Below, in pieces: positions 20,766 through 27,679 of a DNA stretch of 64,000 nt (position 1 is its first letter; the number at the start of each line of letters is the position of its first letter). A program made the position numbers and the translations under genes. The notes below the pieces were generated by a model. It did no database searches. It was given only the letters and a program-made list of their open reading frames with translations, and was not told where the DNA came from. The stretch is taken from the NCBI RefSeq assembly GCF_056746865.1, contig NZ_CM163382.1; one strand, 5' to 3'.

Positions 20766-22160
<1,395 letters not shown>

Positions 22161-22169
22161 TAAAGACAA

Positions 22170-22203
22170 GGCGCAAACTTCACGGGTTGCGCCTGTGTTT
22201 TTA
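22170..22203 (+). terminator. Rho-independent terminator downstream of mdtK
   Basis: GGCGCAA...TTGCGCC stem followed by TGTGTTTTTA. Confidence 0.55.
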
Positions 22204-23457
22204 CGCAGGCTGGAGCGTTGCGCCAATCCCGTCTTCGTCTGGCTGTAGTTTCAGTGCGTTACACAGAGTTTGCCGACTGGCATCTGTTATCTCAACGTGT
22301 ATATCACCAGTAACTTCCCCTTTCACATTGATGAAGTCAGGTGAAATTTCTTTCGCACTGGTTTGCAGGCAAATGGCTCCCTCTCCACGCAGGCGTTTCA
22401 CTTTCAGTTGCACATGCGTTGCCGCACCAGTGATTAGCCACAGTTTTCCGCCATTTAGATTGATGTTACCAACATTGAAAGTGACACTGTCACCTTTTAC
22501 CATACTGCCGTCGAGAATCAATACACCGCCCTGCTGTACAGTAATCGTTGATTGTTGCAGATCTGCGCCATAGCCAATAATCATTGAAGCGCCGTCCAGT
22601 AATGCAACACTACCGGTCAGTTCAACCGGTGCGCGATCTTCCTCTACGACAAAATTTTCGTCCGCGCTGGTGGGTGACAACAGGATGACTGTCCCACCTT
22701 GTATTACCGCATTTTCCAGCGTACCGGCATGCACTTCAGCCCGACCACCCACATTAACGGACAGGTTTTGCGTCTTACCGGAACTGTAGAGCTGAAGACC
22801 ATCCGTCCCCAGACGATAAGTGGATCCATTCTCAACAATAGTGTCAGAGTCTTCACCACCGAGATTATTCATGGTGCCACCAGCAAGCAATGTATCACTG
22901 GCTTTCCCCGCCAGCATAAAAACGCCGCCCTGATTAATCTCACAATTGCTGGCTTCCCCACCTGGATACACCAACAATTCACCACCTTCATCTACCACGA
23001 CCGCTGAGGTTGTCCCATTGACCAACAGGCCACCCTCTTGATCGAGAATAATTTTTTCCGCGCGATGGCCTTCCAGTACACGCAGGTTACCGCCATTTTC
23101 CAGCAACAAACCGCAGGCATAACCTTTATCAACGCTGAATTCACCTTCGGGATGGCGGCCATTAACCGTAGCGAGCGTAGAGAGACTAATTGCGCCTCCC
23201 TCGGACTGAACAATATCTGTGGCAATGGCACCGTCGCTGACCGATAGCGTGCCATTGTTGCCGTACTGTGTGCATTTGGCGATCCCACCGGTTGCCACTT
23301 TCAACCAGCCAGCCCCCGTGACCACGGTATTTTCGGCTCTTCCGCCAGCTTCAACAATTAACTCACCTTCAGTAAGTTGCGTCGCGCCAATGACCTCGCC
23401 GGTCTTAACAATTTGCACGTTCCCGTCGCTCATCAAGTTTTTCGCATCAGATCCCAT
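22201..23457 (-). CDS. ydhQ: Autotransporter passenger-like protein with no beta-barrel domain
   Basis: 418-aa ORF rich in Gly/Thr/Asn beta-helix-like repeats; no signal peptide or C-terminal barrel. Confidence 0.85.
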   Translation of the reverse strand: MGSDAKNLMSDGNVQIVKTGEVIGATQLTEGELIVEAGGRAENTVVTGAGWLKVATGGIAKCTQYGNNGTLSVSDGAIATDIVQSEGGAISLSTLATVNGRHPEGEFSVDKGYACGLLLENGGNLRVLEGHRAEKIILDQEGGLLVNGTTSAVVVDEGGELLVYPGGEASNCEINQGGVFMLAGKASDTLLAGGTMNNLGGEDSDTIVENGSTYRLGTDGLQLYSSGKTQNLSVNVGGRAEVHAGTLENAVIQGGTVILLSPTSADENFVVEEDRAPVELTGSVALLDGASMIIGYGADLQQSTITVQQGGVLILDGSMVKGDSVTFNVGNINLNGGKLWLITGAATHVQLKVKRLRGEGAICLQTSAKEISPDFINVKGEVTGDIHVEITDASRQTLCNALKLQPDEDGIGATLQPA

Positions 23458-23710
23458 GATTTATTCCTTTGCTGCATCTGTGTGCCTTTATTGCTACCTA
23501 AGTGTAAAGGCTACGGAGGATTTATCCACGACAGATTTTGAGATGGTGGCAAACAACTCTGTTTAAACTCTGATACACGGATTATTGGGTTGTATCTGAT
23601 GTAAATGCGATCCTGAATAAAAATCGCCCTTGCAAATCAACAAAATATAGCCAATTTGCTTAAAAGCTCTGCAAACGGTCGAAATAGCGCAGAAAATTAC
23701 GTTTTGCCTC

Positions 23711-23765: not shown

Positions 23766-23842
23766 GCGTTCATAGCTCAGTTGGTTAGAGCACCACCTTG
23801 ACATGGTGGGGGTCGTTGGTTCGAGTCCAATTGAACGCACCA
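23766..23842 (+). tRNA. valV: tRNA-Val (anticodon GAC)
   Basis: 77-nt cloverleaf GCGTTCATAGCTCAGTTGGTTAGAGCACCACCTTGACATGG...TGAACGCACCA; anticodon GAC; encoded CCA. Confidence 0.97.
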
Positions 23843-23846
23843 TCCT

Positions 23847-23923
23847 GCGCCCGTAGCTCAGTTGGTTAGAGCACCACCTTGACATGGTGGGGGTCGGTGG
23901 TTCGAGTCCACTCGGACGCACCA
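23847..23923 (+). tRNA. valW: tRNA-Val (anticodon GAC), with C4 opposite A69 in the acceptor stem
   Basis: 77-nt cloverleaf GCGCCCGTAGCTCAG...CTCGGACGCACCA, 4 bp after valV; 5' strand GCGCCCG against 3' strand CGGACGC. Confidence 0.93.
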
Positions 23924-24030
23924 GATTTTCTTAATCTGGTCTTCTCCTTTTTCCCTCTGTTTCTTCTCTGTATCCAATACGTTAAAAGATTTACACTGTC
24001 TTCGTATGCGTTATCAGAAGGAGAATCGCT

Positions 24031-24336
24031 ATGGCAACTTTGTTACAACTTCATTTTGCTTTTAATGGCCCATTTGGCGACGCAATGGTTGAGCAGCTTG
24101 AACCGCTTGCTGAGTCGATTAATCAGGAACCTGGTTTTCTGTGGAAGGTATGGACAGAAAGTGAAAAGAACCACGAAGCCGGTGGGATCTACCTTTTTAC
24201 TGATGAAAAAAGCGCCCTTGCCTATCTGGAAAAACATACTGCCCGACTGAAAAATCTCGGCGTTGAGGAAGTTGTCGCCAAAGTTTTCGATGTCAATGAG
24301 CCACTTAGTCAAATCAATCAGGCAAAACTCGCCTGA
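24031..24336 (+). CDS. ydhR: Putative monooxygenase (Dabb/ActVA-Orf6-like)
   Basis: 101-aa ORF, recognised as YdhR. Confidence 0.88.
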
Positions 24337-24348
24337 CAGAATTTAATC

Positions 24349-24370
24349 AAGGGCGGTTAGCGCCCTTTTC
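24349..24370 (+). terminator. Rho-independent terminator downstream of ydhR
   Basis: GGGCG-GTTAG-CGCCC followed by TTTTCATCC. Confidence 0.5.
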
Positions 24371-24461
24371 ATCCCTGTCTGAAATTTCTCAAATTCTAAA
24401 AATCTCAACCAAACTTATCTGATAACACTAAATTCGAAAGAATGCGTACAGGTAAGTAACA

Positions 24462-26066
24462 ATGAAAAAAATTGCTATTGTGGGTGCCGGGCCTACGGGG
24501 ATCTACACCTTATTCTCGCTTCTACAGCAACAAACTCCACTTTCTATTTCTATCTTCGAGCAGGCTGATGAAGCCGGTGTCGGGATGCCATACAGTGATG
24601 AGGAAAACTCAAAAATGATGCTGGCAAATATTGCCAGTATTGAAATACCGCCGATTTATTGTACGTATCTCGAATGGCTACAAAAGCAAGAAGCCAGCCA
24701 TCTCCAGCGTTATGGCGTTAAAAAAGAAACCTTGCACGATCGTCAGTTTTTACCGCGAATTCTGCTGGGCGAATATTTCCGCGATCAATTTTTACGATTA
24801 GTAGACCAGGCACGACAGCAAAAATTTGCAGTGGCTGTTTATGAATCATGCCAGGTTACCGATCTGCAAATTATAAATGCTGGCGTCATGCTCGCTACAA
24901 ATCAGGATTTACCCAGCGAGACGTTTGATTTAGCAGTGATCGCGACGGGTCACGTCTGGCCTGATGAAGAAGAAGCAACCAGAACGTATTTTCCCAGCCC
25001 GTGGTCAGGCCTGATGGAAGCAAAGGTCGATGCGTGTAACGTGGGTATTATGGGAACATCCTTGAGCGGACTAGATGCGGCAATGGCAGTGGCTATTCAG
25101 CATGGTTCGTTCATTGAAGATGATAAACAACACGTCATTTTTCACCGCGATAACGCAAGTGAAAAGCTAAATATTACGTTAATGTCGCGCACGGGTATTT
25201 TACCCGAAGCCGATTTCTATTGCCCTATTCCCTACGAGCCCTTACACATCGTCACTGATCAGGCATTAAATGCTGAGATTCAAAAAGGCGAAGAGGGCCT
25301 TTTGGATCGGGTATTTAGATTGATAGTAGAGGAAATCAAGTTTGCTGATCCAGACTGGAGCCAACGCATAGCCTTAGAGAGCCTGAATGTTGATTCCTTT
25401 GCTCAAGCCTGGTTTGCCGAGCGCAAACAACGCGACCCATTTGACTGGGCAGAAAAAAATCTCCAGGAAGTCGAACGCAATAAACGAGAAAAACATACTG
25501 TTCCCTGGCGTTATGTCATTCTGCGCCTGCATGAAGCCGTACAGGAAATTGTTCCTCATCTGAATGAACACGACCATAAACGGTTCAGTAAAGGCCTTGC
25601 CAGGGTTTTCATCGATAATTATGCGGCAATCCCTTCAGAGTCTATTCGTCGCCTACTTGCCTTACGTGAAGCGGGAATCATTCATATTCTCGCCCTCGGT
25701 GAAGACTACAAAATGGAAATTAATGAGTCGCGCACCGTCCTGAAAACGGAAGACAACAGCTACTCGTTTGACGTTTTTATTGATGCCCGCGGACAGCGTC
25801 CGCTTAAAGTGAAAGATATTCCTTTCCCTGGACTACGCGAACAATTACAGAAAACAGGGGATGAAATCCCTGATGTTGGCGAAGATTATACGTTACAGCA
25901 ACCCGAAGATATTCGTGGACGCGTAGCGTTCGGCGCGTTGCCCTGGTTGATGCACGACCAGCCTTTCGTTCAGGGACTTACGGCATGTGCAGAAATTGGT
26001 GAGGCGATGGCTCGGGCGGTCGTAAAGCCTGCATCCCGTGCTCGTCGGCGTCTTTCGTTTGATTAA
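24462..26066 (+). CDS. ydhS: FAD/NAD(P)-binding protein
   Basis: 534-aa ORF with N-terminal Rossmann motif IAIVGAGPTG. Confidence 0.88.
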   Translation: MKKIAIVGAGPTGIYTLFSLLQQQTPLSISIFEQADEAGVGMPYSDEENSKMMLANIASIEIPPIYCTYLEWLQKQEASHLQRYGVKKETLHDRQFLPRILLGEYFRDQFLRLVDQARQQKFAVAVYESCQVTDLQIINAGVMLATNQDLPSETFDLAVIATGHVWPDEEEATRTYFPSPWSGLMEAKVDACNVGIMGTSLSGLDAAMAVAIQHGSFIEDDKQHVIFHRDNASEKLNITLMSRTGILPEADFYCPIPYEPLHIVTDQALNAEIQKGEEGLLDRVFRLIVEEIKFADPDWSQRIALESLNVDSFAQAWFAERKQRDPFDWAEKNLQEVERNKREKHTVPWRYVILRLHEAVQEIVPHLNEHDHKRFSKGLARVFIDNYAAIPSESIRRLLALREAGIIHILALGEDYKMEINESRTVLKTEDNSYSFDVFIDARGQRPLKVKDIPFPGLREQLQKTGDEIPDVGEDYTLQQPEDIRGRVAFGALPWLMHDQPFVQGLTACAEIGEAMARAVVKPASRARRRLSFD

Positions 26067-26077
26067 AGGTAAAGCTA

Positions 26078-26890
26078 TCAGCACTCAACAAACTGATGCT
26101 GTTCATTAAGACGATAGCGGACTCCGGTTCGAATATTGTTTTCACCTTCAATGGCGACGGCGAAGCGAACTCTTTCGCCGTCATGATATGCCAGTGCGGC
26201 GCTTCCCCCTGGCCCGAGAATAATTGAGTCGACCACGCCCGTGCTCACTACCGTTGAATTTTCACCGCTGGCAATGATGTGTACATTGTCGCCGCTGTTG
26301 GCAATTCTGGCGTTTGCGCCAAAGCTGGCGATTTGCACCAGGTCACCATTACTGGCGACATGACATCGTTCACCCAATGTACAAACGCGTACTCGCATTC
26401 CAGTATTCGCAATCCGACTACTATCTCCAGCGCTGCTTATCCGCGAAGAATTACCGGTTACAGCAACCCGTGCGCGTTCACCGGAGCTGCCAATGTGACT
26501 GTTAAAGCCGACACTTCCAATCCGCACGCTATAACCCATACTGGCAATTTGCGCGGCATACCCAGCGGTTGCGATTCTGGCATTATCCTCACAACAGCCG
26601 ATGCGAGCGTGATCGTCGCTGCGGGCAAACTGACTGCAAAATGCTCTCTCTCCGGGATCTGTGGCCAGTTTTTGCATAGAAGAAACTTCCTGATGCGCGA
26701 AGTTTTCATCCGCCAGCCATTTTTTCCACGCATACTCAACCAGACTCTCCGCCCAGTCCGTATATCCTTCCTCAATCAGTGCATGATGAATATCGGCATA
26801 ACTACCGCCGCGTGGGAAATGGCGCAGGAACCAGCGATACATCACCGCTCCGATACGCCATTCTCGCAGGCCTGCTCGTGTAATGATCAT
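26078..26890 (-). CDS. ydhT: Uncharacterised protein, last gene of the ydhYVWXUT operon
   Basis: 270-aa ORF, recognised as YdhT. Confidence 0.85.
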   Translation of the reverse strand: MIITRAGLREWRIGAVMYRWFLRHFPRGGSYADIHHALIEEGYTDWAESLVEYAWKKWLADENFAHQEVSSMQKLATDPGERAFCSQFARSDDHARIGCCEDNARIATAGYAAQIASMGYSVRIGSVGFNSHIGSSGERARVAVTGNSSRISSAGDSSRIANTGMRVRVCTLGERCHVASNGDLVQIASFGANARIANSGDNVHIIASGENSTVVSTGVVDSIILGPGGSAALAYHDGERVRFAVAIEGENNIRTGVRYRLNEQHQFVEC

Positions 26891-26893
26891 TCG

Positions 26894-27679
26894 TTAGTGC
26901 CGGTGATAGCCATCGACCATGCTTTTAAAGGTTTCGTGTGGCGTACGCCCCGTGGTGCAAAGATAAAGATGACCGAAGATAAAAAAGAGGCTTATAAATG
27001 CCAGAGCAAAATGCGCCTGCAATAACCAGTATCTTACGCCAGGAAACACATCTCCCACGGCTTGCGGATAGAGACACAGCAGCCCCGTCAATAGTAACAA
27101 CGGCAGCAATCCAAACATGACACCAATATAGGCAACCTGCTGTAAGGGATTAAATTTAGACTGGGTTGTTGCCGGGAAAGGATGTTCTTCCCCCTGCATA
27201 ATGCCAAACAAATAAAATCGCGTTTGTTTTGCCGCTCGCTCCAGCCAACCCTGACGACGAATGCGATAGTGGTGACCATTACCCCCAACGGCATTGATCA
27301 GAACAAAGCCGAGCCAGCATGCCAGTAACAAAAATCCGCAAACTTCATGCAACGCAACCAGACTTTTAACCGCAGTTGCGCCCACCAGCGCAAAGTGATT
27401 TATCAGCCCACTTGCCAGCAACAATACAAAGAGTAACGCATTCGACCAGTGCCATAATCTGACCGCTTTGCTGTAAAGATAAATCTTCTCACCATGATCG
27501 GTGGCTGATTTCTTCACGCCACGAGCACGAAGCAAGGCATGCAGCCCCAGCACCAACCACATCCCAACCAGCAATAGTCCGGCAATGATCAACCACACCG
27601 GCCAAAATTCGGGAGTGAATTGTGGCACATAGTTCGCCAACTGGCTCTGAAACTGTTCAGCATGTTGCGACGGGTTCAT
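26894..27679 (-). CDS. ydhU: Integral membrane cytochrome b-like subunit (PhsC/NrfD-like)
   Basis: 261-aa hydrophobic ORF; 4-nt overlap with ydhX. Confidence 0.85.
   Translation of the reverse strand: MNPSQHAEQFQSQLANYVPQFTPEFWPVWLIIAGLLLVGMWLVLGLHALLRARGVKKSATDHGEKIYLYSKAVRLWHWSNALLFVLLLASGLINHFALVGATAVKSLVALHEVCGFLLLACWLGFVLINAVGGNGHHYRIRRQGWLERAAKQTRFYLFGIMQGEEHPFPATTQSKFNPLQQVAYIGVMFGLLPLLLLTGLLCLYPQAVGDVFPGVRYWLLQAHFALAFISLFFIFGHLYLCTTGRTPHETFKSMVDGYHRH

Follow-up and report, generated by a model that had tools for sequence, protein, structure and literature searches.

The closest described relatives of YdhQ are Antigen 43 (Ag43, Flu), TibA, and AIDA-I. Ag43 is a surface-displayed protein whose signal peptide is accompanied by a complete autochaperone domain, a linker, and a barrel of 12 strands; TibA and AIDA-I are exported, glycosylated adhesins that also possess barrels. 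The autochaperone domain aids folding of the passenger outside the cell, and AIDA-type repeats are the motif modified by cytoplasmic heptosyltransferases of the Aah/TibC family. ydhQ is a core Escherichia gene that is often filed as an "autotransporter adhesin" and has recently been presented as a "leaderless autotransporter" display anchor. The gene, the YdhQ family, and the missing signal peptide have been described before. We add here that the protein does not qualify as an autotransporter, and we map the point of truncation, document purifying selection on the gene, and describe the empty site in outgroups.

Measured against these systems, YdhQ is ~20–40% identical to the α-domain of Ag43 (PDB 4KH3, 7KO9, 7KOH, and 7KOB) and has none of the export parts. 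For the TibA and AIDA-I families (PDB 4Q1Q), where the cutoff is 1200 bits, it scores 52.6 and 88.5, and the family models of Ag43 and AIDA-I align to it only through internal segments of the passenger, far under their cutoffs. The region related to the pertactin-type autochaperone (PF03212/PF18883) matches the first 78 of 121 profile positions and is collinear with that of barrel-bearing homologs, but roughly its last third is missing and a lineage-specific 15-residue tail stands in its place.

Organization of the ydhQ locus

The window, the whole 64,000-nucleotide stretch of DNA that was analyzed, contains ydhQ in the following setting.

22201..23457, minus strand: ydhQ coding sequence, ATG start, 418 amino acids plus stop (open reading frame list, full-length match to NF007409/PRK09945, RefSeq annotation)
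20787..22160, plus strand: mdtK, convergent with ydhQ and at its 3′ side
22181-22197, no strand assigned: GC-rich hairpin, a terminator, in the 40-bp gap between mdtK and ydhQ (terminator scan and sequence)
23766-23923, plus strand: two tRNA-Val genes (valVW), divergent from ydhQ and at its 5′ end
23458..23710, minus strand: ydhQ 5′ region (sequence)

The identification of this 418-residue reading frame as ydhQ is borne out by its ATG start, a Shine-Dalgarno sequence (AAGGA, 23465-23469), the RefSeq label "ydhQ: AIDA repeat-containing protein" for the same gene, and the NCBIfam equivalog NF007409/PRK09945, which aligns residues 1-418 to profile positions 1-418 with 938.6 bits (cutoff 830). Two codons upstream of the ATG, the frame is closed by a TAA (23461-23463). 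The original prediction placed the end of the gene beside the tRNA-Val genes and referred to its function in K-12; the placement does not hold, and the window is not K-12. The tRNA pair is at the 5′ end, with ydhR on its other side, while the 3′ end faces convergent mdtK, the two stop codons being 40 bp apart; the T-run that follows the intervening hairpin on the plus strand belongs to the mdtK side. The sequence agrees with that of strain 118UI at 100% identity, compared with 97.5% for K-12 derivatives. About five nonsynonymous differences separate this YdhQ from that of K-12, and the GC content of the gene (0.509, compared with 0.503 for the window) is unremarkable; it is an ordinary allele of the family.

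Within the ydhQ 5′ region, the ~60 bases adjoining the start codon show conservation throughout Escherichia, while the middle part is variable. A simple sigma-70 scan of this region gave no promoter site on the minus strand. This conserved stretch (23461-23520, minus strand) contains the GGA motifs AAAGGCA and AAAGGAA, in line with the inclusion of ydhQ mRNA among published CsrA targets (PMC5389547). The ydhQ-valV spacer also holds an FlhDC peak found by gSELEX (PMC9962212). Farther along, Rfam model RF02194 (HPnc0260, "bacterial antisense RNA") matches 23885-24047 on the minus strand with 112 bits (gathering score 59). The match covers part of the second tRNA-Val gene at its 3′ end, together with the spacer and the opening bases of ydhR; tRNA-like sequence may account for it.

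YdhQ resembles the C-proximal part of a passenger

YdhQ is a protein of ~43 kDa with a pI of 4.4 and a net charge of -26. Its elements can be laid out as follows.

Residues 1-328 (22474..23457, minus strand): AIDA/Ag43-type β-helix rungs with a period of ~18–19 residues
Residues 99-135 (23053..23163, minus strand): most conserved block, NGRHPEGEFSVD.GYACGLLLENGGNLRVLEGHRAEK (orthologue alignment, Ag43 alignment)
Residues 261-280 (22618..22677, minus strand): conserved acidic loop, SPTSADENFVVEEDRAPVEL, disordered in the predicted model
Residues 329-403 (22249..22473, minus strand): truncated pertactin/autochaperone-like domain
Residues 404-418 (22204..22248, minus strand): YdhQ-specific C-terminal tail, LQPDEDGIGATLQPA, kept in all orthologues

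The likeness to a β-helical adhesin passenger that had been read from the sequence is confirmed at several levels. Pfam AIDA (PF16168) matches in three stretches (E 8.7e-29), Pfam Pertactin (PF03212) matches residues 329-403 through profile positions 1-78 of 121 (E 5.6e-6), and structure prediction returns a confident β-helix whose nearest relatives are TibA and Ag43. With AIDA-type repeats and a three-faced, right-handed β-helix, YdhQ belongs to the self-associating autotransporter passenger fold, and it also qualifies as a β-helical passenger with a C-terminal autochaperone region. A profile search of the PDB with the C-terminal region matched nothing beyond Ag43 and TibA. The repeat model TIGR04415 ("O_hepto_targRPT") is recognized with 44.4 bits against a cutoff of 30 (E 1.2e-11). 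The composition had been described as rich in Gly, Asn, and Thr; this is true of Gly (15.3%) and Thr (7.9%), whereas Asn reaches only 5.7%.

Two segments stand out by their conservation. The block at residues 99-135 is almost invariant in nine YdhQ orthologues, down to 72% identity, with 95% of columns invariant over residues 101-120, and it aligns with a motif that is present twice in Ag43 (PDB 7ko9, within 201-317 and 315-426). The acidic loop at residues 261-280 has pLDDT values <50 at 263-268 and 270-275, yet 85% of its columns are invariant. A barrel-bearing homolog, P0148, has a nine-residue gap opposite residues 263-271 of YdhQ.

This 978-residue autotransporter also locates the point of truncation. 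Residues 12-416 of YdhQ are collinear with residues 245-594 of P0148, whose pertactin domain spans 519-634 and is followed by a barrel at 717-956. The tail at residues 404-418, modeled as two short strands with pLDDT ~88–90, replaces the remaining autochaperone, the linker, and the barrel. By these alignments, YdhQ corresponds to the C-proximal part of an AIDA/Ag43-type passenger and stops ~40 residues short of the autochaperone's end.

The export machinery is missing

None of the export features of a type Va autotransporter was found in YdhQ, neither a signal peptide, nor a barrel with its linker, nor a C-terminal aromatic residue. The first 50 residues contain no hydrophobic core (best nine-residue Kyte-Doolittle mean 1.21) and the N-terminus carries a net negative charge and lacks both a twin-arginine motif and a Pfam match to an ESPR. 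The frame is closed upstream by the in-frame stop, and the stretch from the start codon to the tRNA genes holds no minus-strand open reading frame of at least 20 amino acids with a hydrophobic, signal-peptide-like N-terminus. SignalP 6.0 is likewise reported as negative for YdhQ in a display study (PMC13101318). At the other end, the Pfam barrel PF03797 gives no match even at E ≤ 1, and the protein terminates in ...GATLQPA, apart from small variants among the orthologues, none of which ends in an aromatic residue. The predicted absence of both a signal peptide and a C-terminal β-barrel is thus upheld. The homologs P0148 and P0164 do possess barrels. Two short homologs whose domains are similar, P0062 (422 amino acids) and P0121 (503 amino acids), were considered as independent barrel-less analogs and rejected, as their C-termini are frameshift junk.

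Nor does YdhQ qualify as the TpsA partner of a two-partner secretion system: Pfam detects no TPS domain, and the neighbors are mdtK and tRNA-Val/ydhR. No secretion gene adjoins ydhQ in the window or at the E. albertii and E. marmotae loci. The lack of a signal peptide bars YdhQ from the periplasm, where a barrel partner would act. YdhQ is not an autotransporter and most likely not a working surface adhesin; having no route of export, it would also not be expected to mediate aggregation between cells from their surface.

Two further properties were examined as possible indicators of location. Cys makes up 0.7–1.4% of residues in YdhQ orthologues compared with a median of 0.5% in 102 large homologs, roughly the top 10–20% of the range; since these values fall inside the homolog range, high Cys is not decisive as a marker of cytoplasmic life. 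The acidic pI matches that of ordinary passengers (median 4.39), and is therefore inherited and uninformative.

ydhQ is maintained under purifying selection

Among 5426 complete E. coli genomes, 5425 carry the ydhQ region, and the gene is intact in nearly all E. coli. The exact YdhQ protein of the window occurs in at least 1000 contigs, and the 90%-identity cluster to which it belongs holds 8778 sequences. Orthologues of 418–419 amino acids with the same start and stop are found in E. albertii, E. marmotae, E. ruysiae, other Escherichia, and a 71%-identical lineage. E. albertii and E. marmotae share the arrangement in which mdtK is convergent and valVW and ydhR lie on the opposite side of ydhQ; in the 71%-identical lineage mdtK is also the convergent neighbor, and its product is 95% identical to that of E. 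coli. This lineage, with a 419-residue YdhQ, is represented by Logan runs SRR31578456, SRR26188688, and SRR26188687 and is probably an Escherichia-like organism on a deep branch, for which read-set assemblies are the only source. None of the homolog matches is labeled E. fergusonii, as judged by match name. An exact-peptide contig scan with YdhQ returned one locus (Escherichia sp. MOD1-EC7003), the patterns being too strain-specific to show distribution.

Pairwise Nei-Gojobori comparisons among six lineages, with dS up to saturation, give dN/dS values of 0.06–0.13 in all 15 pairs. The corresponding values are 0.01–0.03 for mdtK, ribE, and cfa and 0.06–0.10 between species for ydhR, and dN of ydhQ is ~5–10 times that of its housekeeping neighbors. 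When the gene is divided into four segments, each is constrained (dN/dS ≤0.19 where dS is unsaturated), including the truncated autochaperone part at ~0.19. ydhQ does not fit the profile of a pseudogene (dN/dS near 1, frame disruptions, patchy presence). Some positively selected sites in ydhQ have been reported from a site-model study (PMC9110714).

Variants that alter the gene more drastically are rare. In strain AR_0013, ISEcp1 is inserted in ydhQ, the one such disruption seen, and a few singleton alleles carry in-frame deletions of 16–48 residues inside the repeats with both termini intact.

Origin of ydhQ

At the mdtK-valVW position of Salmonella, Enterobacter, and Pseudenterobacter there is no ydhQ gene, and neither tblastn nor blastn detects a remnant. 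These outgroup loci run from mdtK through its terminator to the valVW promoter, and only the valV promoter region aligns with Escherichia. By this comparison ydhQ, together with ~200 bp of upstream DNA, is an insertion of ~1.5 kb in the Escherichia lineage. The segment is not flanked by direct or inverted repeats and so bears no sign of its arrival route. Comparison with full-length homologs, by which loss of a barrel might have been revealed, shows a barrel following the pertactin domain in P0148; because the outgroups have no gene at this position, barrel loss cannot be traced through other Enterobacteriaceae.

In a HMMER scan of 1.84 billion representative proteins, the YdhQ family forms a single 50%-identity cluster, short fragments aside. 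The next best match outside the family is a 1534-residue autotransporter at 38% identity, and no homolog exceeds this value. By these comparisons, the truncation is older than the divergence of the genus Escherichia.

Other differences were seen around these loci. In Salmonella (L008, 7514-13362), type III secretion apparatus genes, which we take to be SPI-2, lie directly past the two tRNA-Val genes, and in Enterobacter (L009, 7528-13374) a type VI secretion cluster lies past valVW. The DNA beside valVW is an island hotspot; ydhQ of Escherichia lies on the opposite, mdtK side of the tRNAs. The mdtK-valV spacer of Pseudenterobacter timonensis contains a 46-residue minus-strand open reading frame (L010, 7411-7551) with no similarity to YdhQ. 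In E. albertii (L002, 1-4432), ydhS is missing between ydhR and ydhT (compare 24031-27679 of the window). In E. marmotae (L004, 1-4426), the genes after ydhS are DUF2767 and YnhH-like ones and one for a pyruvate kinase, probably pykF; none of those that come after ydhS in the window, from ydhT onward, is there.

Discussion

YdhQ is, in our judgment, probably a conserved and expressed, soluble, right-handed β-helix, most likely cytoplasmic, made from a re-used passenger fragment, and neither an autotransporter nor a pseudogene. ydhQ would have descended from the C-proximal portion of an AIDA-I/Ag43/TibA-type passenger, starting in the middle of the passenger and stopping once about two-thirds of the autochaperone domain had been covered. 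Its fixation, in the interval separating the mdtK terminator from the valVW promoter, would have taken place in an ancestor early in the Escherichia lineage. Selection since then would have maintained it as a 418-residue protein. Because it has no signal peptide, linker, or barrel, YdhQ would be made, folded, and retained in the cytoplasm, and cytoplasmic residence of the native protein is the most likely case. That the protein is produced is documented by label-free proteomics, in which its level was 5.5-fold lower with vanillin (PMC6561319).

The idea that ydhQ is a decaying remnant, in which what is left of a truncated autotransporter gene has no function and simply awaits deletion, has some appeal given the fragment-like architecture: YdhQ has no signal peptide, linker, or barrel, no N-terminal portion of the passenger, and only the first two-thirds of the autochaperone. 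The deletion mutant has no known laboratory phenotype, and the rare in-frame deletions and the single ISEcp1 insertion would fit decay as well. Against this stand the low dN/dS (0.06–0.13), a frame that is intact in six of six lineages over dS up to saturation, the identical start, stop, and length throughout the genus, the near-universal presence of the gene (5425 of 5426 genomes), and detection of the protein by proteomics. A neutral frame of 1.25 kb would not stay open over dS >1. The decay reading put forward in the original prediction is largely refuted, and we regard it as extremely improbable. The second suggestion made there, an orphan passenger that needs an export partner, is improbable, and no such partner is evident. 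It would have YdhQ leave the cell non-classically or through a partner encoded elsewhere (the barrel of another autotransporter, BAM/TAM, or vesicles) to serve as a surface adhesin or biofilm factor. YdhQ is homologous to self-associating adhesins; early adhesion is said to need ydhQ, a claim repeated from earlier work in a paper that also reports the positively selected sites (PMC9110714); and YDHQ appears in a COG3468 list built from vesicle proteomes (PMC10458587). Export by a type V or two-partner mechanism, however, requires crossing of the inner membrane, for which YdhQ has no signal peptide, and the protein has no TPS domain, barrel, or adjacent secretion gene. The later open-access papers citing the 2005 adhesin screen (Roux et al.) do not mention ydhQ.

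The display study bears on this question from both sides. There, YdhQ is named a "leaderless autotransporter", fusions furnished with an exogenous signal peptide are reported to be surface-displayed, and signal-less fusions give cytoplasmic fluorescence and no agarase activity, the read-out for display; the evidence for display includes plate halos and a membrane-permeant fluorogen, and the missing barrel is not addressed (PMC13101318). The claim is unexplained and is not proof of autotransport. One way to accommodate it would be that the truncated autochaperone lets YdhQ reach the surface from the periplasm without a barrel of its own, as that 2026 paper implies, although we give this little credence. 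A different cytoplasmic role is conceivable, in which YdhQ would be a substrate or decoy that binds or titrates Aah/TibC-family heptosyltransferases or nascent passengers, and not RNA or translation factors. The TIGR04415 match lies above its cutoff and the closest solved structure is that of TibC-glycosylated TibA; ydhQ is universal, though, while to our knowledge most E. coli, K-12 included, lack Aah/TibC, and there is no glycosyltransferase gene nearby in the window and no experimental hint of such a role. We consider this very unlikely.

Returning to a cytoplasmic β-helix of re-used passenger origin, its role would most likely be that of an intracellular binding scaffold, with candidate contact sites in the invariant residues 99-135 and in the acidic loop, also conserved, at 261-280. 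The partners hinted at so far, a weak lead, would be translation or RNA-associated complexes only: a report that names 17 unannotated proteins as new RNA binders by cross-linking includes YdhQ (bioRxiv 10.1101/2023.07.03.547468), and co-purification of YdhQ with EF-Tu has been described (PMC2672614). With its net charge of -26, YdhQ would be an unusual RNA binder, which counts against the RNA reading. EF-Tu is in addition a frequent co-purification contaminant. That a secretion passenger has been re-used inside the cell as a genus-wide cytoplasmic β-solenoid acting in translation or RNA-protein complexes is a speculative extension that we consider unlikely as it stands. We know of no description of an autotransporter passenger with an intracellular job, and the autochaperone-like domain has no obvious use in the cytoplasm. 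The Keio ydhQ deletion serves as a neutral control strain (PMC6962156) and the locus is in use as an integration site, so no phenotype anchors a function for YdhQ.

These results have consequences for how the gene is labeled and employed. YdhQ fails every export-related test of family membership yet is under purifying selection, which corrects the autotransporter label and rules out a pseudogene. In practice, ydhQ serves as a neutral deletion control and integration site, and the display results obtained with YdhQ need a barrel-independent mechanism. For the biology of Escherichia, the question shifts to the job that a passenger-type β-helix would perform in the cytoplasm.
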